A DNA stretch of 64,000 bases from a virus, in the IMG/VR virus record IMGVR_UViG_3300036985_006248, positions 64,001 through 128,000 of that record. One strand, 5' to 3'. Positions 16,325-56,086 of this stretch are shown piece after piece. Below the pieces are notes generated by a model that had not been told where the DNA came from, searched no databases, and was given only the letters and a program-made list of their open reading frames with translations. Both the position numbers and the translations under genes were made by a program. Every line of letters begins with the position of its first letter. Positions within the stretch are counted from its first letter, which is position 1.

Positions 16325-16330
16325 ATACTA

Positions 16331-16452
16331 CCGTAACATGGCGGGGAATTGAACCCTGCTATAAGGGCGTTACTCGGAATCTACTCGGAGCTTTGCACTC
16401 CAATTATCCACCCTCATTCACCAGACCTGTGATTCCCATACAGCATGTTACG
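16331..16452 (-). ncRNA. ~121-nt tRNA-like structured RNA of unknown type
   Basis: 9-bp terminal stem CGTAACATG/CATGTTACG, T-loop GTTCAATTC and further internal stems; no canonical D or anticodon arm. Confidence 0.6.
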
Positions 16453-16454
16453 TG

Positions 16455-16525
16455 AGCGATGCATCGGTTTCGAACCGATAATATCAACTTGGAAGGATGA
16501 TGTGTTACCGTTACACTAGCATCGC
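16455..16525 (-). tRNA. tRNA-Gly(UCC)
   Basis: cloverleaf; CT-TCC-AA loop. Confidence 0.85.
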
Positions 16526-16585
16526 CTATCTTTTGCGCCTATCGTCTTTTTTATGGCATCTGAGTTAATTCCGCATATACACTTG

Positions 16586-16665
16586 TGGGCAAGGTGGGAA
16601 TTGAACCCACAATGCTTGCGCGGCGCATTTTGAGTGCGCTAGATTTACCGTTTTCCTACTTGCCC
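16586..16665 (-). tRNA. tRNA-Leu(CAA)
   Basis: GCGCA-CT-CAA-AA-TGCGC; variable arm present. Confidence 0.88.
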
Positions 16666-16744
16666 ATGTTTCTTAATCGATTAATCCTTATATATATGAG
16701 GTGTTCCAGTTGTTCCATGGAAAGATGCTTAATTGTCATATTTG

Positions 16745-16818
16745 TAGCAGCGGCGGGATTCGAACCCGCACTGTAGAGATTTTAAGTCTCCTGCCTCCTG
16801 CCTTTGGGCTACGCTGCC
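16745..16818 (-). tRNA. tRNA-Leu(UAA), short variable loop
   Basis: GGAGA-CT-TAA-AA-TCTCT. Confidence 0.88.
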
Positions 16819-16873
16819 TTCTCTGTCTCTACTCATTCTACACTGCTTTTGATTCTACGTCTACAACTATTTG

Positions 16874-16945
16874 TGCCCTCAGAGAGATTCGAACCCCCGA
16901 CCTACGGTTTACAAAACCGTTGCACTACCGCTGTGCTATAAGGGC
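16874..16945 (-). tRNA. tRNA-Thr(UGU)
   Basis: ACGGT-TT-TGT-AA-ACCGT. Confidence 0.9.
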
Positions 16946-16957
16946 GTACTGATTTCA

Positions 16958-17242
16958 TCACAACAACTTCCTTGCATCATATTGACAGACGTAGTATTTA
17001 TCCACTTCTCCATTCCAATCATTCCCATCGGCAGTATAAAAAGCGTGCCGTCCGAGGCGGCTATTGTACCACCAAACAATAAAGCTGTTAGCCTTTCTTA
17101 TTGTTACTATCCCAAACCCCCAACGCTCATCATAAAGCAGCCTGCCGACGTATTGGTTATTTGCCATGTTTCCTTTAGGGTTTGGGCGTCCAACCAAATC
17201 ACCGACTGAGTGAACACTCTTTTTCATCTGTGTCCCTCGCAA
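16958..17242 (-). CDS. GDL-family paralogue
   Basis: VGDLV / YVGRLL...GIV...IVWW. Confidence 0.55.
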   Translation of the reverse strand: MRGTQMKKSVHSVGDLVGRPNPKGNMANNQYVGRLLYDERWGFGIVTIRKANSFIVWWYNSRLGRHAFYTADGNDWNGEVDKYYVCQYDARKLL

Positions 17243-17423
17243 GAAGATTCAAGATGTTTTCCTTGAACAATTCAATATTACTACAACGATAGTTCCTTAT
17301 GACTTGCCCATCGTTCCATTCTATAGTGTATACCCATATTCCACAGTCTTCCTTGACATCTGTGAGGATGCCCGTCTCGCCGTAGTGCGTCATCATCAGG
17401 TCGCCAACATAATGAATCGCCAT
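17199..17423 (-). CDS. GDL-family paralogue
   Basis: YVGDLMM...GIL...YTIEW. Confidence 0.65.
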   Translation of the reverse strand: MAIHYVGDLMMTHYGETGILTDVKEDCGIWVYTIEWNDGQVIRNYRCSNIELFKENILNLLARDTDEKECSLSR

Positions 17424-17459
17424 AGACTCATCCTATCATCGATTGTAGCTACCGTCAAG

Positions 17460-17535
17460 CGCATCCGGCAGGGGTCGAACCTGCATGGGTCCAATTAGCT
17501 TTCTCTCGCTTAGAAGGCGAGCGGCATACGGATGC
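17460..17535 (-). tRNA. atypical tRNA-Arg(UCU) lacking a D-arm
   Basis: acceptor GCATCCG/CGGATGC, anticodon arm CTCGC-CT-TCT-AA-GCGAG, T arm GCAGG-TTCGACC-CCTGC; only 7 nt where the D arm should be. Confidence 0.7.
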
Positions 17536-17541
17536 ATTTAG

Positions 17542-17612
17542 TGACCCTAAGCGGTATCGATCCGCTGTTCAAGCCTTGAAAGGGCTTTGTTCTACCATTA
17601 AACTATAGGGCC
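17542..17612 (-). tRNA. tRNA-Glu(UUC)
   Basis: AAGCC-CT-TTC-AA-GGCTT. Confidence 0.85.
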
Positions 17613-17807
17613 AATTCTCTTTTTCAGCTTTTGATAATCATTGATGTACAACTGCATGCTCCGCTGGGTCATATAAACAATTCTTCCGGTATTCCACTCT
17701 ATGTCCCAATCATCATGTTCGTAATCATTACTGTTGTTCCAATTGTGTTTTCTAATGACCATGCCAACTTTACCAGAGAATACATCAAACAACATTGTTC
17801 CAATCAT
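17598..17807 (-). CDS. GDL-family paralogue (3' end overlaps tRNA-Glu)
   Basis: IGTML...VGMV...WDIEW. Confidence 0.6.
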   Translation of the reverse strand: MIGTMLFDVFSGKVGMVIRKHNWNNSNDYEHDDWDIEWNTGRIVYMTQRSMQLYINDYQKLKKRIGPIV

Positions 17808-17808
17808 A

Positions 17809-17880
17809 TGGGTTGTCTGGGAATCGAACCCAGTTCTATCGATTAAGAGCCGATTGCTTCACCACATAAGCTTACAACCC
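17809..17880 (-). tRNA. tRNA-Lys(CUU)
   Basis: ATCGG-CT-CTT-AA-TCGAT. Confidence 0.88.
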
Positions 17881-17899
17881 AAAACCGTATTGTCCATAA

Positions 17900-17986
17900 C
17901 GGAGTGAGGTGGATTTGAACCACCGATACTATTTCTAGTATGCAGATTTAGCAAACCTGTGCCTTAAGCCCCTCGGCCATCACTCC
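17900..17986 (-). tRNA. tRNA-Ser(GCU)
   Basis: CAGGT-TT-GCT-AA-ATCTG; long variable arm. Confidence 0.9.
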
Positions 17987-18074
17987 AACTAATGCAGTGC
18001 CGCTCTATCTTTTAAGCTACTCCCCCTTAGTCGTTTCTAATACCGTTCACATCTTCGGTTTATACTGCTAAAAA

Positions 18075-18151
18075 TGGTAGGGGATGTGGGATTCAAACCC
18101 ACGATCTTTCGCTCCCAAAGCGAACGCGATATCAGGCTTCGCTAATCCCCT
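18075..18151 (-). tRNA. tRNA-Pro(UGG), CCA encoded
   Basis: TTCGC-TT-TGG-GA-GCGAA. Confidence 0.88.
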
Positions 18152-18171
18152 ATATTATCAAACACTTAATG

Positions 18172-18243
18172 CTCCCAAGGTAAGATTCGAACTTACATAT
18201 TCAAAGTTAACAGCTTTGTCCTTTACCGTTAAGGTACTTGGGA
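18172..18243 (-). tRNA. tRNA-Asn(GUU)
   Basis: CAAAG-CT-GTT-AA-CTTTG. Confidence 0.88.
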
Positions 18244-18260
18244 ATACAACAACAAAAATG

Positions 18261-18386
18261 ACCTGAAAACTGGACTAGCATATCCTGCGATAACCTCGTC
18301 ACTCAAGCGCGCGGTGACCATGCGGTCGGGCGCTCTCAAGACAACAAGGTTCATGTATTCAGGACACCTTACCAGCTTTCTAAGGT
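18261..18386 (-). ncRNA. ~126-nt rod-like structured RNA within the tRNA cluster
   Basis: nested stems GAAAGCTGG/CCAGTTTTC, TGTCCTG/CAGGATA, AACCTTGTT/GACGAGGTT, GCGC/GCGC, GACC/GGTC. Confidence 0.55.
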
Positions 18387-18411
18387 GGGTGTGATCGGCA
18401 CCGCTTATTAG

Positions 18412-18498
18412 TGGGAGTGAAGGGAATCGAACCCCCTTATGCTTATTAGGCACGTCAGGTTTACAGCCTGATGTTCAGTCCAGTAGAACATCACTCCC
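18412..18498 (-). tRNA. tRNA-Tyr(GUA)
   Basis: TCAGG-CT-GTA-AA-CCTGA; long variable arm. Confidence 0.88.
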
Positions 18499-18558
18499 AT
18501 TATAAGATGTTTTTTTAATCTATTCAGTTTTCAAGTTGTCAAAGAACAAGCTATACTG

Positions 18559-18631
18559 TGGAACCTGTGGGAATCGAACCCACAACCTACTGATTAAAAG
18601 TCAGTTGCTCTGCCAATTGAGCTAAGGATCC
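18559..18631 (-). tRNA. tRNA-Lys(UUU)
   Basis: ACTGA-CT-TTT-AA-TCAGT. Confidence 0.9.
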
Positions 18632-18640
18632 ATACAACAT

Positions 18641-18714
18641 TTGCAGGGGTGGGATTTGAACCCACAACGGGGAGATTATGAGCCTCCTGAACTACCGGAT
18701 TGTTCTACCCTGCG
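18641..18714 (-). tRNA. tRNA-Met(CAU), initiator-like (C1:A72 mismatch)
   Basis: GGAGG-CT-CAT-AA-TCTCC; 5' CGCAGGG. Confidence 0.85.
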
Positions 18715-18728
18715 TTAATATTTAATTA

Positions 18729-18814
18729 TCGGCTCGCTAGGGATCGAACCTAGTCTGGACCCCAATCTAGGGTAAGGAAATTATAAGTCTCCCCCGCGTC
18801 CAACGCCCGAGCCG
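18729..18814 (-). tRNA. atypical tRNA-Ile(UAU) with minimal D loop and long variable arm
   Basis: acceptor CGGCTCG/CGAGCCG, anticodon arm GGAGA-CT-TAT-AA-TTTCC, T arm CTAGG-TTCGATC-CCTAG. Confidence 0.7.
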
Positions 18815-18847
18815 TTTTGTTTCTTGCTACTCACTGCTTCTTCATCA

Positions 18848-18876
18848 ATACTACACCCGTTTCGCTTCTACGTCTA
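18848..18876 (-). promoter_or_regulatory. promoter for the tRNA cluster
   Basis: TAGACG-N17-TAGTAT; a second one, TAGACG-N17-TAGAAT, lies at ~16835-16863. Confidence 0.7.
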
Positions 18877-19043
18877 CCACTTTCTTCACTTTCTTTTTCT
18901 ATTCTTTTGTGTAAAGCAACTGTACAGGCGGCTAGTATAGCACCAATATCTAGTGTTGTCTACTTCTTTTTTGATATTTTTTTTTATACCCGCTCTAAAC
19001 GGCAGCACGGTGCTGCCGGGTCATGCAACTAAAAAGGCGGCGC

Positions 19044-19709
19044 TTAGCCGGTCGTCGCCAGCTTGTTAACGATGCTGTCACGATAAAACAGCAACTCACT
19101 TTCAGCAACATTCTGAAGCTCTGCTTCTCCAACAATGTTGATTGTGTAACACCTGCTGCCCTTTGCCCAACTAGCGGGCATGCCTACTTCAACAACAGTT
19201 GACAGGAAGTAACAACCATGTTTCTTGTATACAACAAGCTGTCCCCTCTTATACTTAGCAGCAACCTTATGCTGATTGATATATTTTACTGCATACTTGT
19301 TTTCACACACAGACTTATATTCAGCCTCTGTGGGAATATATTTGGGATCCTTCGCTTTCCTAATGGCATAGCCATAATAAGGAGTAGTTGAATAATACTC
19401 GGTAAGAGTCTTCCAATTGGTAGCAAGCTCATGATTCCAAGCAGCCAACCAACTATCACGCGCAGCAATTGCGGCACCATCATATCGCTGCTCGACCTTG
19501 AGCATGGTATCATATTGCCCTTTGGTCAAGCTCTTATACTTCTGGAATCCTTCTTTGATAGAGGTGAGAAAGTTCTTTTCCCAATCGTTGATAAGACCAT
19601 TACTAAGCAGAATATCAATGCGTGCCGGAATGGTTGCGTCTGCCACCTTTTCTACTGGGGTGTTATAGCGGTGGACGTTCATGCAGTTCATTCTCCATGT
19701 CGAGGTCAT
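19044..19709 (-). CDS. hypothetical early protein, possibly leaderless, with C-terminal SH3/Tudor-like segment
   Basis: TTGACG-N17-TAGTAT-N6-ATG; YKRGQLVVY. Confidence 0.75.
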   Translation of the reverse strand: MTSTWRMNCMNVHRYNTPVEKVADATIPARIDILLSNGLINDWEKNFLTSIKEGFQKYKSLTKGQYDTMLKVEQRYDGAAIAARDSWLAAWNHELATNWKTLTEYYSTTPYYGYAIRKAKDPKYIPTEAEYKSVCENKYAVKYINQHKVAAKYKRGQLVVYKKHGCYFLSTVVEVGMPASWAKGSRCYTINIVGEAELQNVAESELLFYRDSIVNKLATTG

Positions 19710-19747
19710 ACACTGATACTAGCAGGGAAGTCGTTAGTCGTCAACAA

Positions 19748-19996
19748 CTATTTGGGTACAGACTTAATATACTCGGTGGCTGGTATCCAACGCCCCTGAC
19801 GTATAAGAGTCAATATTCTGGTACCAGTCATTTGCCGACTTGTTTTACTAGTGAGTCGTTGATTACAATATTCTACGTCCATCATCCAAGATTTGCCAGT
19901 TCTCCATAAACTAGTTATATATACTAAGTCGTTTCTTCTCACCGACCAGAACAAGCAACCAATATACTTTCTATACTTTTTCTCGGTTGGAGTCAT
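19748..19996 (-). CDS. GDL-family-like paralogue (KYRKYIG subtype)
   Basis: KKYRKYIGCLF...DVEY. Confidence 0.6.
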   Translation of the reverse strand: MTPTEKKYRKYIGCLFWSVRRNDLVYITSLWRTGKSWMMDVEYCNQRLTSKTSRQMTGTRILTLIRQGRWIPATEYIKSVPK

Positions 19997-20159
19997 TGGG
20001 GTTGTCTTGGAATTCGTCTGTATGCCAAATCTGTTTCATCGCTGTATCTGGGGCACACTCAAAACAGAAAATCGTTTCATGCAACTCATCGATTGGAACA
20101 AAGACAAAATCATCTTCAAGACCTGCCTTGTCACAATTGCTGCACCTCCACAAACTCAT
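19971..20159 (-). CDS. small Zn-finger protein (CSNC...CFEC)
   Basis: AAGGA SD before ATG 20159. Confidence 0.6.
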   Translation of the reverse strand: MSLWRCSNCDKAGLEDDFVFVPIDELHETIFCFECAPDTAMKQIWHTDEFQDNPNDSNREKV

Positions 20160-20250
20160 ATTGTTTTCCTTGTAAGTGTTGCCGAAACTAAAGACAGAAG
20201 CGGGTGTCAGTTGGGAGCAGCCCGCTTCTGTCACTATCGCTGCTCCATCA

Positions 20251-20580
20251 TCAGGCAACGGAACTAACAGCCTGCTCCGCTGACTCGATTTGTTCAGCAG
20301 CGCCAACCTCAACTGCCGCCTTCGCCTTCTTCGCCGCGTGCTCAGACCGCTTCAAGACGATATCCGAACCCGGCAGGGCAAGACCACCGTTGCGCCCGCG
20401 AAGGCCAAGCAACACACCCGACCCCTTCAACTCGTCAACCACATCAAGCACATCAATGCCGAACTTCTCGGTGAGGAAATGCGACGGGCAGGGACGCTTG
20501 TTATCAGCAACGAAGACAGAAACCGCAGCGAGAACGTCCGACTTGGAAACGGCAACAACAGTGTTAGTAGCGGTAGTCAT
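20251..20580 (-). CDS. winged-helix (Rrf2-like wing) DNA-binding protein
   Basis: LKGSGVLLGLRGRNGG; own promoter TTGACG-N17-TAGTAT. Confidence 0.6.
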   Translation of the reverse strand: MTTATNTVVAVSKSDVLAAVSVFVADNKRPCPSHFLTEKFGIDVLDVVDELKGSGVLLGLRGRNGGLALPGSDIVLKRSEHAAKKAKAAVEVGAAEQIESAEQAVSSVA

Positions 20581-20699
20581 ATTGTTTGTGTCCTTAGATG
20601 GAGTGAACAGCGTTTGGTTGGGGGTTGAACTTCCTACTTCGCCTCGACTTCTGATATCCATACTATTCTACTTTCTGCCTTACGTCAACATCTTTTTTT

Positions 20700-21017
20700 C
20701 TATTCCGGCTCTTTTCCACTAAGGTCAACGGGTCTATGCAAAAAGCCTTGACATGGTATATTCTTGGTGCCTTCGCTGCTCCATCCGGTACAACGCATAC
20801 GCACTTTTTCTCTATCTGCACAAACAAGCATCAAGCGATAACGATAAATTCTGCCACCGCGATAGATACCAGTAATCATTGAAATGGCATATTCTGGAAC
20901 ATACCGTTCTAATGTATTATCCCAAACAGCATATTTATGCCAATGCAACATGCCCACTCGCTTACCATATTCCCTCGCTGTGGCTGAAGTCTTTGTCTTT
21001 TTGTCTTTCGCGTCCAT
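20700..21017 (-). CDS. hypothetical protein (GDL-family-like), leaderless
   Basis: ATG 7 nt after TAATAT; YGKRVGML...MITGI...Y. Confidence 0.55.
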   Translation of the reverse strand: MDAKDKKTKTSATAREYGKRVGMLHWHKYAVWDNTLERYVPEYAISMITGIYRGGRIYRYRLMLVCADREKVRMRCTGWSSEGTKNIPCQGFLHRPVDLSGKEPE

Positions 21018-21104
21018 GAAAACCATATTACCACAACGATGGGTTAAGTCGAATGATTCTTTCTTATGCCCTTCTGCCCCACTATTAGTTCTTTTCACTT
21101 GACC

Positions 21105-21163
21105 CGGCAGCTGGATATGATATAATAGGGGATTTGTCTTCCACGTATCATATCCAGCCGCCG
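21105..21163. repeat. 18-bp inverted repeat containing the GGC(A/G)GCTGG motif
   Basis: CGGCAGCTGGATATGATA ... TATCATATCCAGCCGCCG. Confidence 0.75.
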
Positions 21164-21222
21164 CAGATCATACATATATCAGGAAGGGCGTCTATCATTA
21201 CCGCCCTTCCAACCTATACTAT

Positions 21223-22440
21223 TTAATCAACAGCAATCACGCGCTCATGGGTCTTGAAAGGCATACCATTCAGGCAATCCCTTGTAGTCATCCACATACG
21301 CTGACACTTGCTGCTGACAGGTTTCTCAGCCTGCATATCAGTCAAGACAATATGACCGTCAAACGACTGCTCATTGACATACTTAGTCGGAGCATTGAAG
21401 TCAGTACCGCCATGCTTGACACGCTCTTTCTTCTTATTCATACCCTTCTTCCAAGTGTAGACAAGCTCCTTAGCGACCTCAGTATCGAAAGGAATAACAG
21501 TGAACGTTGCAATCTTTGCAAGGTTATTCAACTCAGAGAAGAAAGACTCAAGCATCTGGTCAGACACAGAGCCAGACTGGTCGATGCTAATAGCAATCTT
21601 AGCATGACGGAGAACCTTCTTACCCGGATGAATATAAGCATACCGCTTATTGATACGCTTGACAGTCGAGGTCTTCGCAGACCGCTGCGAAGTCTTGATG
21701 AAATAGCGCAGGACAGAACGCCAATCAATCTTGCCGCTAATCCTGTCCATGATATCCTTGCGGACACTCTGGGACACAGTACCCCAACCTTGCGAAGACT
21801 TGTTGGCTTGGTCTGCCGCGTCACGCATCATTTCACGCAGGCGTTCCTTTGCCATTTCACGCAAGGTAGGGTCCAACTTCTCAGCATTCTCACCCCAACC
21901 ACTATGGTCGTCAAACGAGTCACCCTCGCCTTCACCATCTTCACCCGGCTCACCTTTGCCCTTGTCCTTGTCTCCCTTGCTCTTGTTGTCATCGGTCAGC
22001 TTGTTGTAATACCATTCGGCGCTCTCATAGAGAGGATAATCAGCGAATGGACCAACACCCGGCACACAAGCAATAGCAGGAAGCTCAGAGGCAATAAAGC
22101 TATTAATTGCAAGGTCGGCAGCAATATTCCACTTCTTAGTCATCTTGCCTTCTGGCATACGCTCAGTGACGTGACCCAAGACAAGATGATAAAACTCATG
22201 CTTGAGAACACCTGCGCGCTGCTCTCGCGTCAGCTTGTGAAAGAAGGAAGGGTTGTAAAGCATTTCAAAATGACCTTCGCTGGTAATACGAACGCCAGCG
22301 GTGGGCAGATTGGTCGAGGAACGCTTCTCGACATGACGAGAAATCTCTGCAAAGAAAGGCTCACTCTGCAAAAGGTTGTAGACGTAAATGTCAAGGTCAA
22401 ACGACTCAGCGATGACGGATTCAGTAACTTCGTTGCTCAT
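21223..22440 (-). CDS. metallopeptidase-like + VWA domain protein (DUF2201 type)
   Basis: HEFYH, NIAADLAIN, MIDAS DQSGS, GGTDF, LTD. Confidence 0.85.
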   Translation of the reverse strand: MSNEVTESVIAESFDLDIYVYNLLQSEPFFAEISRHVEKRSSTNLPTAGVRITSEGHFEMLYNPSFFHKLTREQRAGVLKHEFYHLVLGHVTERMPEGKMTKKWNIAADLAINSFIASELPAIACVPGVGPFADYPLYESAEWYYNKLTDDNKSKGDKDKGKGEPGEDGEGEGDSFDDHSGWGENAEKLDPTLREMAKERLREMMRDAADQANKSSQGWGTVSQSVRKDIMDRISGKIDWRSVLRYFIKTSQRSAKTSTVKRINKRYAYIHPGKKVLRHAKIAISIDQSGSVSDQMLESFFSELNNLAKIATFTVIPFDTEVAKELVYTWKKGMNKKKERVKHGGTDFNAPTKYVNEQSFDGHIVLTDMQAEKPVSSKCQRMWMTTRDCLNGMPFKTHERVIAVD

Positions 22441-22511
22441 TGGTGGAACCTCCTACTGCGAGTGATAGACCTATTATGCCAGAAGACGCAGGGAAGTCCA
22501 ATGAAAGGTAC

Positions 22512-22835
22512 TTATACTGGGCTTGCCCACCGACGTCGCTTTTTCATAGCTTCTTCGCTTGACATGGGCGGCTGGTTATGATATGATGCCGCGCTCACTG
22601 GTATTGCCTGCTTATCAAACAGCTTAGAAGATACATTCTGGTTATGTCGCATTACTTCTGGATGATTCAAATACTCTACTTGGTAATGCCACCAACCACT
22701 AATCTTTTTCACATCAACAGGCATTACAAGTATCTCAGTCGTTACAAACTCTCCTGTGGCACTTATAAATCTCCTACCGTTCATAATAAAAAGCTTACCA
22801 ATGTTCTTTCTGTATTTATCCTCTACTGTAGACAT
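22512..22835 (-). CDS. GDL-family-like paralogue (KYRKNIG subtype)
   Basis: KYRKNIGKLF...YQVEY. Confidence 0.6.
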   Translation of the reverse strand: MSTVEDKYRKNIGKLFIMNGRRFISATGEFVTTEILVMPVDVKKISGWWHYQVEYLNHPEVMRHNQNVSSKLFDKQAIPVSAASYHNQPPMSSEEAMKKRRRWASPV

Positions 22836-22877
22836 TCCTTTTGAGTCTCCGCGCTATATGAAATGATTGCACAAACA

Positions 22878-22910
22878 ACAAAAAGCAGGGGAGTGTGTTC
22901 TTCCCCTGCT
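22878..22910 (-). terminator. intrinsic terminator
   Basis: AGCAGGGGA...TCCCCTGCT followed by a T tract. Confidence 0.7.
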
Positions 22911-22919
22911 CAAAGGCTA

Positions 22920-23975
22920 TCACTTCTTGGCAGGAGTGCTAGGATTCAGAATCTGAATGATACGGTCAGACAGACGGTCATGAATGCGAACCGTGTTCTT
23001 GACGTTCTCACCAGACACCTGACGCCAGAATTTCATGCACACTTCGCTAGGCATGGTGAGCACATACGCGCACACAGCAGCCAGCTTGTTATCGGGCAGT
23101 TCATTCTTGAACAGACCAGAAGCGATAAGCTTGTCAGCCATACCAGTGTGGTCGTTGATGCCCCACTGAGCAGTCTTCTCAAGACGACCCTCAAAGATAT
23201 CATCAACAGTCACCTGACGCTCATACTTGTCAACGAAGTCGCGGAAGGCAACCGCAGCTTCAAAGCCAAGGAAAGCACACCCGACCTCATAGGTCGAAGA
23301 CAAGTGAGCCTTTGCATCGTTGCCAAGGAAGGCGGCAGCAGTGACGCACTCGTTGAACCGCGCCCAGCTACGGCGCGAAGGATACACCTTATTGGGTTCA
23401 AACTCTCCCTTGTGCTCAAGGTGCCCGCGATTCTGGTTGATGAAATCCCAGATGATACCATCGCAGTTGGTCTTCGCCCAAGCAAGCCAATCCTCGACAG
23501 AAGGCTCAAGGTCGAAGGTGGTCCAACGGTCAAGCTCTGCCGGGTCCATTTCGCCAACCTGATACTGCGCGCCGTGGGCACCACCATTGACAGCGGCGAA
23601 GATGATAGTATCAGGGTGCAGAGTGTGACCGTTCAGCTTGCGCGAGTCGGTCAATTCAAAGATGCCCTGACGGACCTCAAGAGTAGCACGGTCAACCTCG
23701 TCAAGAAAGAGCACACGCCCATGGTCGCAGCAATCCTTAAACCAGTCAGGCGGATTGAAGCGGGTCGAGTTACCCTCGACAGACGGCAAACCAATAAGGT
23801 CACCTTCCGTCATCTGCGAGGCGCGGCGCTCAACAACACGCATGCCCACAGAAGCCGCATACTGATAGACAGTCTCACTCTTACCAAGACCGTGACGACC
23901 GCGAATCAGTACAGGCTTCTTGACAGCAGTGATGAAAGGAACAATCTTGAGAAAGGTCTTAAAGTCAACGGCCAT
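22920..23975 (-). CDS. MoxR-like AAA+ ATPase
   Basis: Walker A GRHGLGKS, Walker B LFLDEVDR, MDPAELDRW. Confidence 0.88.
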   Translation of the reverse strand: MAVDFKTFLKIVPFITAVKKPVLIRGRHGLGKSETVYQYAASVGMRVVERRASQMTEGDLIGLPSVEGNSTRFNPPDWFKDCCDHGRVLFLDEVDRATLEVRQGIFELTDSRKLNGHTLHPDTIIFAAVNGGAHGAQYQVGEMDPAELDRWTTFDLEPSVEDWLAWAKTNCDGIIWDFINQNRGHLEHKGEFEPNKVYPSRRSWARFNECVTAAAFLGNDAKAHLSSTYEVGCAFLGFEAAVAFRDFVDKYERQVTVDDIFEGRLEKTAQWGINDHTGMADKLIASGLFKNELPDNKLAAVCAYVLTMPSEVCMKFWRQVSGENVKNTVRIHDRLSDRIIQILNPSTPAKK

Positions 23976-24048
23976 GTGTGTTACCTCGGTGTTCAGCGAG
24001 TTATGGATAGATACTACAGGAGGTTCGGCTTTACGTCAACATCTATTT

Positions 24049-24669
24049 TTAACTTCTACGCGACCTCTTTCCCTTGAAGATATTTTCAATGCCGCTGGAA
24101 CCGTCAAGCCAATTCTTAGGGACGCTAGCGCGAATTTCGTCTGCGGGGCGGCGCGTCAAGACTCTGACACCGTGGTCCTCATTTGCTTTATTCTTCGCGT
24201 TGACAGCGTTCGCTCGGAATGAATAACCGTATGAACTGTTACTGGTAAGGCCACGTCCCATAAGCGGACGTGAATAACAATTTTTTGATTGAATGTCATC
24301 CCAGCTAATAGATTCAAGTAGATACAGGTCGTCAGAAGCCAACCCTTCCAATGTATCAAAGTCTTGGACTACACCACCGAGGTTCTTGTAATATTTGTCA
24401 TAGAGGGTAATCAATGAACCAACCCCTAAACCATTCTCAGCCATATTATCAAGCACTCGCGCTCTGAATGCGGCGTTTTCCTTGATATAGTTAATCTTGT
24501 TGCCTTTGAGAACAATACAGGTGGGTCGGGTATGACCAGAGTCCCCGCAGTAACTACAGGTACGCACCTTAGCGGTCAGCTTGGTAATAGCCTTTTGTTC
24601 TGGCGTGAGCAGGTGGCAGGTACGTCTGTTATGACCCTTAGCTCCACAATATCTGCAATGTCGCATCAT
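24049..24669 (-). CDS. protein with two CCHC zinc knuckles
   Basis: CRYCGAKGHNRRTC and CSYCGDSGHTRPTC. Confidence 0.75.
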   Translation of the reverse strand: MMRHCRYCGAKGHNRRTCHLLTPEQKAITKLTAKVRTCSYCGDSGHTRPTCIVLKGNKINYIKENAAFRARVLDNMAENGLGVGSLITLYDKYYKNLGGVVQDFDTLEGLASDDLYLLESISWDDIQSKNCYSRPLMGRGLTSNSSYGYSFRANAVNAKNKANEDHGVRVLTRRPADEIRASVPKNWLDGSSGIENIFKGKRSRRS

Positions 24670-24720
24670 GATATAAGCCCGTTCCCTTCTTGACTGCGCG
24701 GTTCCCCTACTGATATACCT

Positions 24721-24775
24721 ATAATACACCCACCTTGCCCACACGTCCACATCTTTTTGCATGAACAGTTCTAAT
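24721..24775 (-). promoter_or_regulatory. sigma70-type early promoter
   Basis: AGAACTGTTCATGC...TGGACG-N17-TATTAT. Confidence 0.7.
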
Positions 24776-24842
24776 CGATGCCCTCGTGCCTATTAGCCTT
24801 TTTTACTAGGACATGGCGGCTAGCTATGATATGGTGGATAAT

Positions 24843-24899
24843 TTATCCATTTAGCCCAGACCCAGACCCAGACCAAATAAAGCAGCGAGTAATTCTCAC
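24843..24899 (-). CDS. Ser-X peptide 4 (MRITRCFIWSGSGSGLNG)
   Basis: GTG overlapping the previous TGA; same leader as peptides 1-3. Confidence 0.5.
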   Translation of the reverse strand: MRITRCFIWSGSGSGLNG

Positions 24900-24991
24900 G
24901 TTTCACCAGACCCAGACCAAGACCCAGACCAAGACCAAGACCAAGACCCAGACCTAGACCTAGACCAAATAAAGCAGCGAGTAATTCTCAC
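24896..24991 (-). CDS. Ser-X peptide 3 (31 aa)
   Basis: MRITRCFIW-(S[RGW])9-SGET; GTGA coupling. Confidence 0.6.
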   Translation of the reverse strand: MRITRCFIWSRSRSGSWSWSWSGSWSGSGET

Positions 24992-25215
24992 GTTTCACCA
25001 GACCAAGACCTAGACCCAGACCAAGACCAAGACCAAGACCTAGACCAAGACCCAGACCCAGACCTAGACCAAGACCCAGACCTAGACCCAGACCTAGACC
25101 AAGACCCAGACCAAGACCCAGACCAAGACCCAGACCAAGACCCAGACCTAGACCCAGACCTAGACCAAGACCCAGACCAAGACCCAGACCAAATAAAGCA
25201 GCGAGTAATTCTCAC
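24988..25215 (-). CDS. Ser-X peptide 2 (75 aa)
   Basis: MRITRCFIW-(S[RGW])31-SGET; GTGA coupling. Confidence 0.65.
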   Translation of the reverse strand: MRITRCFIWSGSWSGSWSRSGSRSGSWSGSWSGSWSGSWSRSGSRSGSWSRSGSGSWSRSWSWSWSGSRSWSGET

Positions 25216-25403
25216 GTTTCACCAGACCCAGACCAAGACCCAGACCTAGACCCAGACCTAGACCAAGACCAAGACCCAGACCCAGACCCAGACCCAGACC
25301 CAGACCTAGACCCAGACCTAGACCCAGACCAAGACCCAGACCCAGACCCAGACCAAGACCCAGACCTAGACCAAATAAAGCAGCGAGTAATTCTCATTGT
25401 CAC
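25212..25403 (-). CDS. Ser-X peptide 1 (63 aa)
   Basis: MTMRITRCFIW-(S[RGW])24-SGET; GTGA coupling to the upstream gene. Confidence 0.65.
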   Translation of the reverse strand: MTMRITRCFIWSRSGSWSGSGSGSWSGSRSGSRSGSGSGSGSGSWSWSRSGSRSGSWSGSGET

Positions 25404-25684
25404 TTCATGCGGATAAGTGCAGTGCCGCCTCGGTCAATAACCATTTCAAAAGCGCCTTCATGCTTCTGAACATCTTTCCCTTTGCCTGAGAAAAACTCCT
25501 TGTAGGTGCCGCTTTCGTAAACAGTGGCGGTATCAGTAAAGACAAACACTGTTCCGGTAACAGAATTCAATGTACCAGTATAGTGCAAAGTAGGAGTGCG
25601 AATATAATACTTAGCGCCAATCTTAAAGATTCCTTCTGACAATTCACCATCAGCAGCGACTTCGCGGGCATCATTGACGTTCAT
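25400..25684 (-). CDS. small beta-rich (Sm-like?) protein heading the Ser-X operon
   Basis: FKIGAKYYIRTPTLHYTGTL...; AAGGA SD. Confidence 0.75.
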   Translation of the reverse strand: MNVNDAREVAADGELSEGIFKIGAKYYIRTPTLHYTGTLNSVTGTVFVFTDTATVYESGTYKEFFSGKGKDVQKHEGAFEMVIDRGGTALIRMK

Positions 25685-25713
25685 GTGTTTTCCTTTGGTT
25701 AGTTACTTAAGAC

Positions 25714-25768
25714 AGAATACACCCCTTCTGGCAGTACGTCGAGAGCTTTTTGCATGAACAGTTCTAAT
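25714..25768 (-). promoter_or_regulatory. early promoter of the Ser-X operon
   Basis: AGAACTGTTCATGC...TCGACG-N17-TATTCT. Confidence 0.65.
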
Positions 25769-26098
25769 GTCACATGCTATACTATAAGAGGTTTTACTTG
25801 ATAGTTGGCGGCTAGGTCACTCCCACACCCCGCGAGTATAGTATACCATAGGGTGCTGGGGATATCCAGTGAAAGAATCTACTAGAAGGGTCACGCGCTA
25901 TAAGAGCTATTAATGCACGCCAGCCGCCCGCATGGTCCTATTATAGCATGGCGCTAGCGAGACGTCAATTGAATCTTTCTTATAGGAGCTATTAATACTT
26001 CTATCAGTAGACAGCCTTATTGAATATCGATATACATATTATTCTTTCTTGTAGCCCTGTATATGTTCCCGTGGTACTGTAGTTTGTGGATGAAGAGC

Positions 26099-48676: not shown

Positions 48677-51600
48677 TCAGCCTAACAATTTAAACGTATG
48701 CTTAATACTTCTTGTACTAAATCCCCAAGTATCATCGTATTGTAACTTTCCTAGATATGGTCGGTTAAGCCAAATCTTATCACGCTTTGGGTCAACCCCC
48801 CAGCATTTAATATTGGTAAGTTTATTTGTAATATCTGTAGTTTCTAGAATCCAGAATATCTTGCCGTTTTTTGTTTTCTTCTCAGTAATTTTACGTGGGA
48901 TAAACCATACTACCTCACCCAATGATGGGTCATAATCACCAATCGGTGGAATATATTTATCTTCAATGCTTTTTAAAGTCGCCGGGTCGAGCACAAGATT
49001 AATTGGATAAACTCCCGATAGCGAGACAAGATTTTCAATAGTTTCTTCCGTAGTAAAACTGCCTTCTGGCTTGTACTTGTCTATGTTCTCCAGCAGCTTC
49101 TTTGGTGTCTTTGGACGGTCAACCACTACTGCCGACCAAAAGTGTTTTAACCCAGTGAATCTCTTATCAACCAAAGAAGGCAAAGCGTTGCTTCTTGTTA
49201 AAGCGTCAAGGGCTTTTTTGTTTAACTTACTATAAATTATCTCTTCATTAAACAGCAGTTCCTCGACTGTCTTGAAAGGTCGATATTTCATTATTTCTGT
49301 CATGGCTGTATCTCCAAGTCCCTTAATAGATGACAGAGGTTGAATAAGTGTTTTATCGTCTAGGTTATCGACTTCCCATTTCGTACCTGAATTGTTGATA
49401 TCGAGTGGCTTGATGTTAAACCCATAGTATTTTGCTAGAGAAATAGCAGCTTCCTTTTTTTCCTCCGGTTCTTTATCGAGAAACGCCGCCGCCCATTCTG
49501 CTGGATGATGATGGAACAGGTAAGCACACTGATAAGAAATTATAGAATAACAGATAGCGTGTGATAAATTGAAACCGTACCCTGAAAAGAATTCCATAGT
49601 CTTCCAGAGATCGATACCGTTTTCTTCTGTTAATCCCTTCTCCACACACCCGTCAATAAACTTCTGATAAAGCTTAAGCTTGACTTGTGCTTCCTTGCCA
49701 GTTCCTTTCTTGGTGAGAACCTTCCGTAGTTCATTACCTTCATCTAGGGAAATGTTTTTACCAAGTTTGTGCGCTAACATGCTTAATTGCTCTTGGAAAA
49801 CTATGAATCCATGGGTTTCTTGCGTCACTTCTTTAATTAATGGATGAGCATATTTTATAGACTCAGGATTATTCTTAGCTAAGATATAATTCTCATGTAC
49901 GTTTGCCGATAAAGGACCGGGACGGAAGATAGAAGTAATGGCCGCGATATCTATGATGTTTTTTGGTTTAGCTAACATGCAGAATTTCTGAGCATTTTTG
50001 CTAGTGAACTGGAATGTTCCACAGAAGTTTCCTTCTTGGAAAATGTGTTCATAGACACCTTGGTCGTCTAGATTGATCTTTTCTGGATGGAGATTATCAT
50101 TGTAATACTTCTTGATATCCTCAAAGGTGGGCGTAGCAATGCCGTGGTGTCTTTTAAGAATGTGTTCAATCGCTGTTTCAATCATACGAAGAGAAGCAAG
50201 ACCAAGAATATCAAACTTGATAAACCCAAGTGGCTCTAAATGACGTACTGTTTGTCCTTCAGTCCAAGGGGTTTGTACAGTGCCACCACTATTGATTAGA
50301 GGCATCTTTTCATTGATATTATCTGCAAACAAAACTCCACCAGCATGGCGCGAAATAGAACGTACTTGCTTCTGCAAGTTTTCAACGTGTGTCGCAACAT
50401 GGGGATACTTTTTGATGTAAGCATTGAGTGCGGGACTGTGTTCCTTTAACTCTTCCCAAGTCGGTTCATATACACCAGCTATAATGCCGTGTATTTTCTT
50501 GCAAATAGGAGTAGCTTCGTTGAGCATCTTAGAAGTGACTTCGTTCACGTCTGTAAAAGGGATTTCGTATAACTTGCTAATATCTTTTACTAGAGAACGT
50601 GGCTTTAGAGTATTGTAGTTGGAAATAGGAACTACCGAGTTTTCTCCATACTCTTTGATAAGCAATTCCTTAATTGCCATAGGGTCGGAAACGTCAAAAT
50701 CGATATCGGGCATATCACTAAGATCTGTTTTGCGGATAAAACGTGAAAACTGTAATTTATACTTGATAGGGTCTATTTCTGTAATATTTAGCAAATATGA
50801 TACAAGAGAACCCGCTCCAGAACCACGGCCACCACCGCATAACTGTACTTCTTTGGACTTGTCGCTAATCTTCTTCATAGTCAAGAAGTATTTTGAGAAT
50901 CCACGGTCTTTAATGGTGTGAAGTTCTTCTTTTAATCTCTCAACGTAAGCGTTGTCTTTATAAAGCCCAGTGCTCTTTAACTTATCGACTGCCATTTTGG
51001 CTAATGCGGTATCTGCGGTTTCACCTTCGGGAACAACGAATGAAGGCAACTTAATGCTCGTATCGGGAATATAATTCTCAATACGGTTCTTAAGAATATC
51101 GTCTGTACGAGCAATAGACTCTTCGATAAGCTTATCATCATAGGAAAAGCCAAGGTTTTTTGAGAATAGTTTATAGGAGGCAAACAATTCATCGCCGTTC
51201 TTGGGATAAAGCTGATATTCCATCGCTTCTAGAGTAGAAGGCAGTGCGTCGATTTTAATTTCATTTCCACCCTTACCAGCCCAACCGAGCATCTTATAGA
51301 TTTCGCGGTCCTTCCACATATCCGGTGAAGGAAAGTGTGCATCACACGTACTGATGAGCTTGAAGCCTAGCTGTTTAGAAATATTGATGATATATTGATT
51401 AACAATGTGTTGCTCTTTGTAATTCGCCCACTGTAATTCACCATAAAAGCGATCACCAAAGATATCCATCATAGACTTAACAGTCTTTTCCATGGCAGCG
51501 TAAACAGCCCTTTCTCCCTTGTCGATATTATCCCAATAATCATTGGCTAACACTCCACCCAGACAGGCAGAACTGGCGATGAGTCCTTCGTTGTGCTTCT

Positions 51601-52114
51601 TGAGCATTTCATAATCCATACGTGGGTAGCGATAAAAGTTATCACCACGATATGAATCACTAACCAACTTGAAAAGATTGTTTAAACCAATCTGGTTTTG
51701 GGCTACCAACACCAAGTGCGAACGACGATTTAAGGTTGAACGAATGCCTTTCTTAGTTTCGCTTTCATTTTCGACAACTAGTCCAACATCGTCGTCAACA
51801 TGCTTTGCAAGCTTGGCGTCATCTTTGTGCTTGCTGTGTTCTCCCTTCCATTGAATTATGGATGGGTGGACGTATGCCTCAATACCATACATAACGCGAA
51901 AATCTTTACCTTCTTCTTTCATCTTCTTCGCCTTCATAAAAGCATAGCTAAAGCTATTGCAATTTCCATGCTCTGTAAAAGCAATACCTTGCAGTCCATT
52001 TTGAAAGCCGAAATCGATATGTTCTTCGGGATACCCGAGGCCATCAAAAATAGAATATGTAGTGTGCGTATGCAGGTTCACGAAAGGAATACTGGTCTTC
52101 TTGCGCTCTGACAT
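48677..52114 (-). CDS. dnaE: DNA polymerase III alpha subunit
   Basis: PHP domain LHTHT.YS..DG, GRGSGAGSLVSY, PDIDFD, HAGGV, KFDILGL, YGFNLSHA. Confidence 0.96.
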   Translation of the reverse strand: MSERKKTSIPFVNLHTHTTYSIFDGLGYPEEHIDFGFQNGLQGIAFTEHGNCNSFSYAFMKAKKMKEEGKDFRVMYGIEAYVHPSIIQWKGEHSKHKDDAKLAKHVDDDVGLVVENESETKKGIRSTLNRRSHLVLVAQNQIGLNNLFKLVSDSYRGDNFYRYPRMDYEMLKKHNEGLIASSACLGGVLANDYWDNIDKGERAVYAAMEKTVKSMMDIFGDRFYGELQWANYKEQHIVNQYIINISKQLGFKLISTCDAHFPSPDMWKDREIYKMLGWAGKGGNEIKIDALPSTLEAMEYQLYPKNGDELFASYKLFSKNLGFSYDDKLIEESIARTDDILKNRIENYIPDTSIKLPSFVVPEGETADTALAKMAVDKLKSTGLYKDNAYVERLKEELHTIKDRGFSKYFLTMKKISDKSKEVQLCGGGRGSGAGSLVSYLLNITEIDPIKYKLQFSRFIRKTDLSDMPDIDFDVSDPMAIKELLIKEYGENSVVPISNYNTLKPRSLVKDISKLYEIPFTDVNEVTSKMLNEATPICKKIHGIIAGVYEPTWEELKEHSPALNAYIKKYPHVATHVENLQKQVRSISRHAGGVLFADNINEKMPLINSGGTVQTPWTEGQTVRHLEPLGFIKFDILGLASLRMIETAIEHILKRHHGIATPTFEDIKKYYNDNLHPEKINLDDQGVYEHIFQEGNFCGTFQFTSKNAQKFCMLAKPKNIIDIAAITSIFRPGPLSANVHENYILAKNNPESIKYAHPLIKEVTQETHGFIVFQEQLSMLAHKLGKNISLDEGNELRKVLTKKGTGKEAQVKLKLYQKFIDGCVEKGLTEENGIDLWKTMEFFSGYGFNLSHAICYSIISYQCAYLFHHHPAEWAAAFLDKEPEEKKEAAISLAKYYGFNIKPLDINNSGTKWEVDNLDDKTLIQPLSSIKGLGDTAMTEIMKYRPFKTVEELLFNEEIIYSKLNKKALDALTRSNALPSLVDKRFTGLKHFWSAVVVDRPKTPKKLLENIDKYKPEGSFTTEETIENLVSLSGVYPINLVLDPATLKSIEDKYIPPIGDYDPSLGEVVWFIPRKITEKKTKNGKIFWILETTDITNKLTNIKCWGVDPKRDKIWLNRPYLGKLQYDDTWGFSTRSIKHTFKLLG

Positions 52115-52133: not shown

Positions 52134-52841
52134 CTATACCACGTTAGTTTCTTCTTTCCAAATTTTTTTATTTATCAAAAGATAAATTGTGGTGCAAGAT
52201 ACATCATATTTTTTAGATAAAGATTTTGTTGTATTTCCTGATTCGTGTAATTGTCGTATTTCCCTAGCCTTACCCCAATCTAATTTAGACATAGGATTTA
52301 TTCTTTTTTTGGCTTTTTTTCTCATTAATTCTATAGTTTCGGCAGAGTGTTTTTTTCCATACATTGGATTCTTCTCGTTCTGTCTATTGCCTATAGCTTC
52401 TCTGATTTTTTGTTTGGTTGCATTCGTGAGCTTCTTGCCGTATGCCGGTGCGAGATGTCCCTTTTTTCCATACATCGGATTCCTCTCCCCAGAAACGTCT
52501 GCGTGATTTTCGCTTATTCTTTTTTTGGCATCTTCACTGTATTTAATGCCCAAAGTAGAACTCGCAATTTTACAGATGTTATATTCCGGCGTTAGAATGT
52601 CTAGAAAGTGCTGCTCTCTTAGTAACAAGCTATTGATATCAATTATTTCTTCTAGGACTTCGAATATAAAGTTTTCTTTTCCGTATTTGTCCCAAGCTCT
52701 TTGTAAATGATAATTACTATGGGTTTTGTTTTTTAATTCGCTAACGTGAGTAGAAAATCTATTTTTTATATCCACCGCGCTACCAATATAAAATTTACCA
52801 TTAATACGATTTGTTATTTTATAAATGCCAGATTTTTTCAT
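52134..52841 (-). CDS. free-standing GIY-YIG homing endonuclease with NUMOD3 repeats
   Basis: GIYKI...FYIGSA; NPMYGKKH repeats. Confidence 0.92.
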   Translation of the reverse strand: MKKSGIYKITNRINGKFYIGSAVDIKNRFSTHVSELKNKTHSNYHLQRAWDKYGKENFIFEVLEEIIDINSLLLREQHFLDILTPEYNICKIASSTLGIKYSEDAKKRISENHADVSGERNPMYGKKGHLAPAYGKKLTNATKQKIREAIGNRQNEKNPMYGKKHSAETIELMRKKAKKRINPMSKLDWGKAREIRQLHESGNTTKSLSKKYDVSCTTIYLLINKKIWKEETNVV

Positions 52842-54037: not shown

Positions 54038-54418
54038 CTAAACTTGGGTCTTTAAAACATCTTTTAAACCATTTACCGCTTTATCAACTACTTTTGAGCA
54101 CAGATCTAATTCCTGAGTATATTTGTACATGCCAGCTTGCATTGCTAGTAATTCCTGATTAGACATATTCTCTCTAGTTAATGAGGTCTTTAAAATGGAA
54201 TCAATCTTCATTGAACCTTTTTCCAAGGATGCAATAATTGAAGAAATGGTGCTTGAAATTTTTGAAGTTGATTCAATCTTGTTTACATGATGATTATCAT
54301 GTTGTTTATTGATTGTCACATCAAATTTACTTGGTGCTGTTTTTTCTAATTGTGGACGTGGATGTTCAACAACTTTTTGTAAGCCCGCTGCTGCTATGTT
54401 AGAAAGTGGACCCGCCAT
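54038..54418 (-). CDS. type III secretion inner-rod (SctI/PrgJ/HrpB2)-like protein
   Basis: C-terminus MSNQELLAMQAGMYKYTQELDLCSKVVDKAVNGLKDVLKTQV fits the rod-family pattern. Confidence 0.72.
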   Translation of the reverse strand: MAGPLSNIAAAGLQKVVEHPRPQLEKTAPSKFDVTINKQHDNHHVNKIESTSKISSTISSIIASLEKGSMKIDSILKTSLTRENMSNQELLAMQAGMYKYTQELDLCSKVVDKAVNGLKDVLKTQV

Positions 54419-54419
54419 A

Positions 54420-54899
54420 TTATCTGATATTGCTAATGGAGTTTTTTGCTGTGTCGTGTTTTGTCTTTAAAACATTTGATATTGATGAAAACATTGTATT
54501 TTCACGCTGCATAGCCATTTGAACCTGTAGCATTTGTGAGTTCTGAGCTGACATGCTGGCTATATCAGTATTATACTGACCTATACCGCCTGTAGCTGCC
54601 CCAGCAATTAAGTTTGGACCGCTACCACTGCCAGAGCTACCATTTAATCCTACAACGCCTGTAGCGGCGTATGAAGCACCAGAAGTGCCCCCGACTAGAT
54701 TGTTAATCGATGACACTGCTGCTGAAATAACCGCTCCACCGGGTAATGCGCTTCCCAGCAATGCAGCGCCTTGTGATACGGCAGAAGCTCCAGAATATAA
54801 AGCATCATTGACCTTTTCACCAAAGTTTTTTCCCTGTGTTTGTTTTGGTAACGTTACGTTCATTGAGAGACGATTTGGCATACTGATTACATTACTCAT
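54420..54899 (-). CDS. type III secretion needle/pilin (SctF)-like protein with Gly/Ala/Ser-rich extension
   Basis: C-terminus MLQVQMAMQRENTMFSSISNVLKTKHDTAKNSISNIR fits the needle-subunit C-terminal helix. Confidence 0.68.
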   Translation of the reverse strand: MSNVISMPNRLSMNVTLPKQTQGKNFGEKVNDALYSGASAVSQGAALLGSALPGGAVISAAVSSINNLVGGTSGASYAATGVVGLNGSSGSGSGPNLIAGAATGGIGQYNTDIASMSAQNSQMLQVQMAMQRENTMFSSISNVLKTKHDTAKNSISNIR

Positions 54900-54965
54900 A
54901 ACTGTTTCCTTTAAAAAAAAAGTACCTATAGTAATTATCGGAGAATCATTGAACTAGTTGCTTAA

Positions 54966-55422: not shown

Positions 55423-55628
55423 TAAAGAACCTTTACTTGCATATATTCGTATTCTTCTGCCTTAATAAATTCATCAAAAGAGTATGTTCTAACTTCTTCG
55501 GACTCGGTATCTAAATACGTAATATACGCATCCTTAAGAAAAGTCATCAGCTTTTTCTTATTTGAAAAATACCACTCTTCGGTAGATGGATAATGATAAA
55601 GTTTATAGATTTTCATTTGGCTGCTCAC
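55422..55628 (-). CDS. hypothetical protein
   Basis: 68 aa coupled ORF. Confidence 0.55.
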   Translation of the reverse strand: MSSQMKIYKLYHYPSTEEWYFSNKKKLMTFLKDAYITYLDTESEEVRTYSFDEFIKAEEYEYMQVKVL

Positions 55629-56086
55629 GACGCGACCTCCGTGCGGAAGACCTCATTGTGCGCCCGCTTCCACGTTGAGCGGGAAGGCACCTCCTCCTCG
55701 GACTCACACACGAGGTCACGAAGCGCCTCCCGCGGCCGGTCAATCTCAGCCAGCAGCACCTCGATGGCGGACGCCATCTCCTTCGGAACCGGGTGGACGA
55801 AGCCTCGCACCTGCACCATTGCCTCGGGGTCGCTGTGCTTCTTCGGGAAACAGCCTTTCGTCGGGCAGTAGAAGCCGACAGAGCCACCGTCAACCTGCGC
55901 CGCACCGCACCGCTCGCAGCCACCATCAGCCGCATCAACCTCGGGAATGGCTGCGATTGCGTCGAGGTAGCCGTTCAGCTCGGCGTTCTTGGCCTCCAGT
56001 TCCGCGACGCGGGCTTGTAACGCCGTAACCCACGGTGTGCCGTCCAAGCAGTCTTCACATATGCAATCGCTAAAGTGTTTGCTCAT
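55625..56086 (-). CDS. hypothetical protein, mostly encoded by a high-GC segment
   Basis: 153 aa; third codon positions almost all G/C. Confidence 0.65.
   Translation of the reverse strand: MSKHFSDCICEDCLDGTPWVTALQARVAELEAKNAELNGYLDAIAAIPEVDAADGGCERCGAAQVDGGSVGFYCPTKGCFPKKHSDPEAMVQVRGFVHPVPKEMASAIEVLLAEIDRPREALRDLVCESEEEVPSRSTWKRAHNEVFRTEVAS

Follow-up and report, generated by a model that had tools for sequence, protein, structure and literature searches.

A phage-borne gene pair related to small type III secretion proteins of Myxococcota, preceded by a host-type promoter-like motif

[quoted passage not shown] This question is raised by two genes, here called A and B, within a stretch of 64,000 nt (in the following the window), i.e., bases 64001-128000 of a viral IMG/VR record that is 174,280 bp long and has a CheckV completeness of 96%. 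An earlier note had read A as a needle-like and B as an inner-rod-like gene of a jumbo phage. The record shows hallmarks of tailed phages, namely a major head protein (phrog_138, 1e-69), a T4-type baseplate wedge subunit and PhoH, and encodes a 1145-aa DnaE-like polymerase (window 48677-52114). With its 174,280 bp it is below the usual threshold of 200 kb, such that the term jumbo has to be dropped.

The features of the locus are listed in Table 1. Both genes are present as previously described, that is, as adjacent, co-oriented reading frames on the minus strand, and their C-termini read as quoted in the earlier note. A single base (54419) separates the stop codon of A from the ATG of B. Since B starts 1 nt past the stop of A and shows no promoter of its own, the two are probably co-transcribed and translationally coupled. 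The AT-rich, phage-like composition stated before is confirmed by GC contents of 43% (A) and 34% (B), compared to 38% for the phage genome and 63-67% for the bacterial homologues.

Table 1. Features of the A-B locus (window coordinates).
Feature	Position	Strand	Description
Gene A	54420-54899	(-)	159 aa, ends ...SNVLKTKHDTAKNSISNIR; conserved N-terminus, Gly/Ala/Ser-rich middle, SctF-like C-terminal helix
Gene B	54038-54418	(-)	126 aa, ends ...ELLAMQAGMYKYTQELDLCSKVVDKAVNGLKDVLKTQV; putative phage copy of the T3SS* inner-rod protein SctI
Shine-Dalgarno-like AAGGAAA before gene A	54905-54911	(-)	read from sequence
Promoter-like motif GCAACT-N15-CGATAA	54935-54961	(-)	sigma-28/FliA-type layout; ends 36 nt before the ATG of A

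The neighbours of the pair are small non-structural genes; the replication genes are close by, the head and tail genes far away. No match of the A-B region to cultured phages was found by blastn, and a tblastn search with the DnaE-like polymerase returned phages of unrelated hosts at 27-31% identity only, which gives no clue to the host. Three further features of the surroundings were recorded. First, window positions 10000-26000 form a block of 44-54% GC, which contains a tRNA cluster, in a genome of otherwise 32-42% GC. Second, a 153-aa reading frame with 63% GC (55625-56086, minus strand) is found three genes upstream of A in the 38% GC phage. It matches no family, is absent from the five candidate host genomes searched, and may be a recent gain from a high-GC source. 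Third, a 235-aa reading frame (52134-52841, minus strand) adjoins the 3' side of the DnaE-like gene and resembles a GIY-YIG-type homing endonuclease, a call based on motifs.

To which proteins are A and B related? Their likeness to T3SS proteins goes beyond chance. The closest relatives of both (E-values down to 1e-57) are encoded in T3SS loci of Myxococcota in the order A, B, sctJ. The earlier note had suggested to look for best hits in such loci and in the same order, and this is what was found. The order sctF-sctI-sctJ is the canonical one; sctI-sctJ is seen in the plasmids pCD1 and pINV. Two kinds of loci can be distinguished. The main locus has the order 96-aa gene, A, TPR protein, 136-aa gene, sigma factor, B and sctJ, which mirrors yscE-F-G-H-I-J of pCD1; the best match of its sigma factor is FliA/WhiG. 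The second kind (locus L097, G001:C1:776000-794000) is compact and comprises genes for a patatin-like phospholipase and a 268-aa protein, followed by A2, B2, sctJ, sctQ, sctR, sctT, sctU and sctV. Here, the order A2-B2 matches the needle-rod adjacency of Mxi/Prg-type systems. The T3SS loci with relatives of B are complete ones from Myxococcota metagenome-assembled genomes (MAGs) and have a GC content of 66-67%.

Family A is large, with 777 close clusters and 2128 representatives at 50% identity. Among 201 evenly sampled Myxococcota genomes, 161 have a match to family A, often two per genome; the tally takes in one unpublished genome (G199), on which none of our claims depends.

The identity of B can be stated best. 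Its homologues are Myxococcota proteins (E-values to 1e-26 and beyond) that are found on long contigs directly upstream of sctJ in T3SS loci, i.e., in the position of SctI. Beyond the B homologue and sctJ, these loci hold a FliG-like gene, sctL, sctN, sctO, sctP, sctQ, sctR, sctS and sctT as well as a sctK-like gene. The phage copy itself has no sctJ beside it. Phage B matches the SctI profiles of Pfam (PF17001, T3SS_basalb_I; E 7.6e-4, 20.3 bits) and NCBIfam (NF038054; E 1.8e-3, 18.4 bits) below the respective curated cut-offs of 32.4 and 39 bits. PF17001 is also matched by 24/27 members of the B family, with a best E-value of 3.3e-5 and again all below the cut-off. Furthermore, a review names SctI as one component of the M. 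xanthus (Myxococcus xanthus) T3SS* cluster MXAN_2434-2464 (PMC10433427). Given the synteny and the consistent sub-threshold profile matches, we assign B to the SctI family of the myxobacterial 'needleless' T3SS* as a divergent member, and the inner-rod label of the earlier note thus holds.

A PDB profile search with the B family gave no T3SS match, and aligning the family profiles with single YscF or YscI sequences was not informative. No paralogy between A and B was detectable by hhalign.

When phage and bacterial copies of B are compared, an N-terminal MAGPL...PSKFD block and the last ~45 residues are conserved. The Gln-rich middle of the bacterial proteins is missing in the phage copies. 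Among 51 columns conserved within both groups, six are fixed for different residues (M61I, K74A, N77K, E112D, S116N, T121V), three of them within the C-terminal helix, and in the tree the phage B proteins are set off by a long stem branch of 1.12 changes per site. For A, there is not a single fixed difference among the 66 columns that are conserved in both groups. Its conserved N- and C-termini flank a variable middle, and the Gly-rich variable part is shorter in phage A.

The identity of A is less clear. In the bacterial loci, family A occupies the position of a needle gene, that is, before sctI/sctJ and together with a TPR-type chaperone. A has no significant match to a curated family. Its match to the Pfam needle profile PF09392 (residues 113-158, E 0.17, 12.5 bits) stays below the cut-off of 29.4 bits, and short members of the family reach E 1e-3 with 17-19 bits. 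We also compared the C-terminus of A, represented by an alignment of 84 family members, with eight canonical SctF proteins (YscF, AscF, MxiH-type and SsaG-type) taken from annotated plasmids. Using hhalign, 40 columns align from C-end to C-end with a probability of 58% (P 9.6e-5); a second hhalign comparison of the A family with SctF yielded P 9.4e-4. For B aligned with SctF, P was only 0.08. In the PDB, the top match of the A-family profile is a needle fragment of 43 residues (7y6c_F, E ~0.03), aligned to the last residue. A search of the ESM Atlas with A returned needle clusters with a score of 0.85, which serve as leads only. Annotated plasmids were chosen as the source of SctF because a PF09392 search over 300 Gammaproteobacteria genomes returned one sub-threshold needle, a homologue search with this needle gave three proteins, and tblastn with one of these found nothing in plasmids.

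The overall build of A departs from that of a needle. Homologues of A are 159-185 aa long compared to ~70-90 aa for needles, and A does not have the form of a helix-turn-helix hairpin of 70-90 aa. AlphaFold2 monomer models (from alignments of 23 and 84 sequences) place helices at residues 26-48, 56-69 and 106-158 around a disordered middle with a mean pLDDT of 54-60, where the C-terminal helix is the sole confident part. Residues 44-62 form a Gly/Ala segment of borderline hydrophobicity (KD19 1.59). The needle label of the earlier note is thus supported only in part, by a C-terminal helix that resembles that of SctF, and is weakened by the missed Pfam cut-off, the doubled length and the Gly/Ala segment. 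Furthermore, the T3SS* has been described as needleless, i.e., without needle, secretin and translocon (PMC12075869, PMC10433427). By its position and its C-terminal helix, A is needle-like and not a demonstrated SctF.

It is possible that A is instead a translocator-like or another exported substrate. In its specific form, i.e., that A is a membrane-active (translocator- or toxin-like) exported protein which shares just the C-terminal helix with needles, such that the phage carries a rod together with an effector-like protein, we consider this rather unlikely. It would account for the Gly/Ala segment and for the missed PF09392 cut-off. The TPR protein next to A matches the translocator chaperone class LcrH/SycD best (1.4e-10), ahead of the needle chaperone CdsG (8.7e-8), with SctY also among the best matches, and a divergent A homologue in the IMG/VR contig L009 has a weak match to microcin V. 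On the other hand, both kinds of loci have A in the place of sctF, the C-ends of A and SctF coincide in the alignment, conserved termini around a variable middle are the typical layout of axial proteins, and A and B share one common promoter motif.

Next, we turn to what the phage does not carry. The earlier note had found no export apparatus in the window, and this extends to the whole record: tblastn of the 174-kb phage with every gene of two Myxococcota T3SS loci (among them sctJ, K-like, L, N, O, P, Q, R, S, T, U, V, the chaperone and the sigma factor) identified A and B only. Likewise, HMMs of both families detected no further A or B copies in the phage. Since the phage lacks chaperone, sigma factor and apparatus, A and B would act only through the machine of the host.

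A connection to this machine is suggested by the promoter-like motif. GCAACT-N15-CGATAA is found upstream of both A and B in 7/7 Myxococcota T3SS loci and nowhere else in these loci; it is absent from L097. In three host genomes of 8-9 Mb, the strict motif occurs 3-4 times per genome, two of these at A and B, compared to 0 for the reversed control. Within the 174-kb phage, both strands considered, it occurs exactly once (expected 0.024), and the site listed in Table 1 is the only one in the window with up to 1 mismatch. Related phages show similar sites: L007 and L008 have GCAACT-N15-AGATAA 40 nt before A, and L006 has GCAACT-N15-CGACAA (1 mismatch) 30 nt upstream of a PG_binding+CHAP gene, the first gene of a cassette CHAP-A-B. 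In L009, a site with 2 mismatches, which is weak alone, precedes the 272-aa gene at the head of the cassette by 38 nt. Because the motif is conserved ahead of host A and B as well as phage A, the T3SS* regulon of the host appears to include the phage cassette. The remaining one or two strict sites per host genome (L105-L108) precede unrelated genes, namely those for a 109-aa acidic, a 503-aa, a 634-aa and a kinase-like protein. These may be further members of the regulon or chance matches.

Does the pair belong to the phage lineage, and from where was it obtained? The contig L006 is syntenic with the window phage (65-88% amino acid identity) and carries A-B. In the related phages L007 and L008, the pair is located elsewhere in the genome and on the strand opposite to its neighbours. 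It is also present on a JGI contig, which is low in GC and phage-like as are L006-L008, and a more distant copy is found in two IMG/VR contigs (L009 and L010). That is, at least four related phage contigs and one independent lineage carry the pair as well. For both genes, the comparison of the window with L006 yields dN 0.19 and dS of about 2.7, i.e., a dN/dS of about 0.07. The pair is under purifying selection, which answers the dN/dS check proposed in the earlier note. At third codon positions, the likeness of phage and bacterial copies is no better than chance (0.17-0.29); the last 45 residues are 82-93% identical. An assembly chimera was considered and is excluded by the phage-like composition, the recurrence in other phage contigs and the purifying selection.

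Two of these contigs contain an additional protein whose C-terminus is like the needle-like helix of A. In L006 (9196-9777), a 193-aa protein follows B (tblastn E 0.005 to the C-terminus of A), and in L009 (5293-6111), the 272-aa protein precedes A (PF09392 E 0.27).

In the trees, the low-GC phage copies nest inside a clade of freshwater 'Archangium sp.' MAGs with SH-aLRT values of 82 (A) and 99 (B), and the phage copies of B form one clade with 99% support. The copy of L009 falls into another, deep clade, and we thus count at least two putative captures from hosts. With its location in a phage genome, its nesting within a host clade and its purifying selection, the pair has the properties of phage auxiliary genes or morons.

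Given the trees, the tRNA set for AT-type codons, the Shine-Dalgarno usage and the fit of the promoter motif, the host is most likely an uncultured freshwater member of the Myxococcota ('Archangium sp.' MAGs). The 14 tRNA genes are clustered at window positions 16251-18814, many of them reading A/U-ending codons; together with the use of Shine-Dalgarno sequences, they are consistent with a low-GC phage that infects a high-GC host outside the Bacteroidota. The GC gap of 30 points between phage and host is unusual, however, and counts against a myxobacterial host. A Bacteroidota host, which would match the low GC and the mosaic proteins described below, is disfavoured by the Shine-Dalgarno usage, the myxobacterial promoter motif and the trees.

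What could the pair do for the phage? The reading we prefer, with a probability of roughly 0.6, is that of a host-derived, moron-like cassette, in which captured genes for late T3SS* substrates are transcribed by a host sigma factor, exported by the host and serve to supply or retune its apparatus. Here, the phage lineage would have captured the inner-rod gene (B, SctI) and the gene in sctF position (A) from the T3SS* of a host. The T3SS*-specific sigma factor of the host would then transcribe the cassette only where a T3SS* is being built, in analogy to flagellar class-3 control. In T3SS substrates, the signals for export and for chaperones lie in the N-termini, and axial proteins assemble via C-terminal helices. 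Both parts are kept in phage A and B, such that the host apparatus could export the two proteins through their conserved N-termini, and the C-terminal helices, which are conserved as well, could mediate their entry into rod or filament. In the weakest step of this chain, the phage would thereby supply exported subunits that are consumed stoichiometrically, including an altered rod protein, at a time when host gene expression fails. Contact-dependent lysis of prey and the resulting nutrient supply might thus continue, or be retuned, during infection. We favour supply or retuning because A is unchanged at its 66 conserved columns and B combines six fixed differences with a long stem.

A stronger claim can be made only tentatively, and we regard it as doubtful. 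That is, the virus would control the killing machine of a predator by means of subunits that are switched on by the T3SS* sigma factor, exported, and used to rebuild or retune the host machine, e.g., via the ratio of rod to filament, the length or the switching of substrates. If true, infection would alter how, or whether, a myxobacterium lyses its prey. It would also follow that the supposedly needleless T3SS* does have a filament or needle protein, namely family A.

The same differences between phage and host copies can be read as sabotage. Phage subunits could co-assemble with those of the host and jam, cap or re-surface rod or filament, such that the T3SS* is turned off or a receptor is masked (superinfection exclusion). 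This we hold to be distinctly unlikely. The long stem of phage B, its six substitutions with half of them in the C-terminal helix, and the loss of the Gln-rich middle would all fit, as would the shorter Gly-rich middle of phage A, a region that in axial proteins would be expected to lie exposed. Peptides derived from A and B within proteins of other phyla (see below) suggest in addition that both are targets of inter-bacterial conflict. However, a poison subunit is not expected to remain without any fixed difference at 66 columns, which counts against plugging by A. The exposure of a receptor is moreover unproven, as the T3SS* has no known outer-membrane channel (PMC10433427).

The peptides in question are near-identical cassettes derived from A and B that we observed in hundreds of secreted or outer-membrane-anchored proteins, where they are placed between unrelated beta-rich scaffolds. 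Carriers are, e.g., P0199, P0237, P0238, P0225, P0263, P0241, P0244, P0281 and P0313, encoded in loci L047-L090 (for instance L048 5869-6597), and belong to Flavobacterium (including cultured isolates), Paludibacter, Lysobacter, Thermomonas and others. Pieces of A stem from its N-terminus (MPNRISMNVTVPKQTQG.TFGEKVN), its middle (LPGGAIISAAVSSV) and its C-terminus (KTKHDTAKNSISNIR), and the piece of B stems from its C-terminus (EKATSGLKDTLKTQV). The N-terminal cassette of A is repeated 8 times in P0241, and one RHS protein holds several cassettes. Such proteins could be decoys or mimics in a conflict between predator and prey.

A role in opening the cell wall appears improbable. Here, the rod- and needle-like proteins would position or export a phage peptidoglycan hydrolase for local opening of the wall or for lysis, as EtgA acts with EscI and FlgJ with the flagellar rod. 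The idea draws on L006, where a PG_binding_1+CHAP gene (7590-8261) is located directly upstream of A-B and behind the promoter-like motif with 1 mismatch; such a gene also directly precedes A-B in the JGI contig. Yet no CHAP homologue is encoded anywhere in the phage of the window, and none beside the pair in L007, L008 and L009. The hydrolase is thus optional, and PG_binding+CHAP is the ordinary layout of an endolysin.

Finally, an assembly chimera, contamination with host DNA or a role as virion structural proteins is highly improbable: we found no support for any of these, the GC content is phage-like with third codon positions random relative to the bacterial copies, at least four independent phage-like contigs contain the pair, which occupies two different positions in the genomes and carries a host-type promoter motif, and its location near replication genes and far from head and tail genes disfavours a virion role.

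The locus is informative in several respects. It connects predatory Myxococcota with a group of uncultivated phages. It provides independent evolutionary evidence that both small proteins of the T3SS* locus matter, since a phage has long kept both, A without change at its conserved sites. The motif and the FliA-like sigma factor point to a compact regulon, which can be tested in M. xanthus. The question of how a 'needleless' T3SS* moves its substrates is sharpened as well, with family A as a candidate filament or adaptor, and the phage versions of A and B offer natural minimal variants for experiments.

In the literature searched, we found no report of T3SS rod or needle subunits encoded by a phage, and in the searched passages of a 2026 preprint on 790 myxophages there is no mention of T3SS genes. 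Also new here is the motif GCAACT-N15-CGATAA that is common to host A and B and phage A.

How does the locus compare with known systems? With regard to SctF (YscF, MxiH, PrgI, SsaG, EscF; PF09392), the likeness of A lies in its place before the rod gene and sctJ, in the TPR chaperone gene that follows it and in the alignment of its last 40 residues. In contrast to SctF, A has no clear P-x-x-P hairpin turn, its middle is rich in Gly, Ala and Ser and partly hydrophobic, and the system of the host is described as needleless. With SctI (YscI/LcrO, PrgJ, MxiI; PF17001, NF038054), the B family shares small size, a gene that abuts sctJ, a conserved N-terminus and a C-terminal helix. Phage B differs by its sub-threshold scores, the missing Gln-rich middle and the six fixed substitutions, and by being encoded in a virus without the apparatus.

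The proposed regulation resembles flagellar class-3 control by sigma-28 (FliA), i.e., the host locus encodes a FliA/WhiG-like sigma factor, and a CGATAA -10 element with 15-nt spacing precedes genes of exported, axial-type proteins. The sigma-28 promoter has the form TAAA-N15-GCCGATAA, with TAAAGTTT as the enterobacterial -35 element. The -10 element and the spacing of the motif agree with this form. The -35 element GCAACT of host and phage is unlike the enterobacterial one, no anti-sigma factor was identified, and the regulation of A and B is a prediction from the motif.

Phages are known to carry genes for T3SS effectors (sopE on SopE-phi) and for metabolism (psbA in cyanophages). The supply of subunits that are consumed would follow a logic comparable to that of phage-encoded host proteins with high turnover. 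As for morons such as psbA and sopE, A and B are host-derived, kept under selection and would act via host machinery that the phage does not encode. Unlike these, the A-B cargo would consist of exported structural subunits rather than effectors or enzymes, and it comes with a promoter motif from the regulon of the machine itself.
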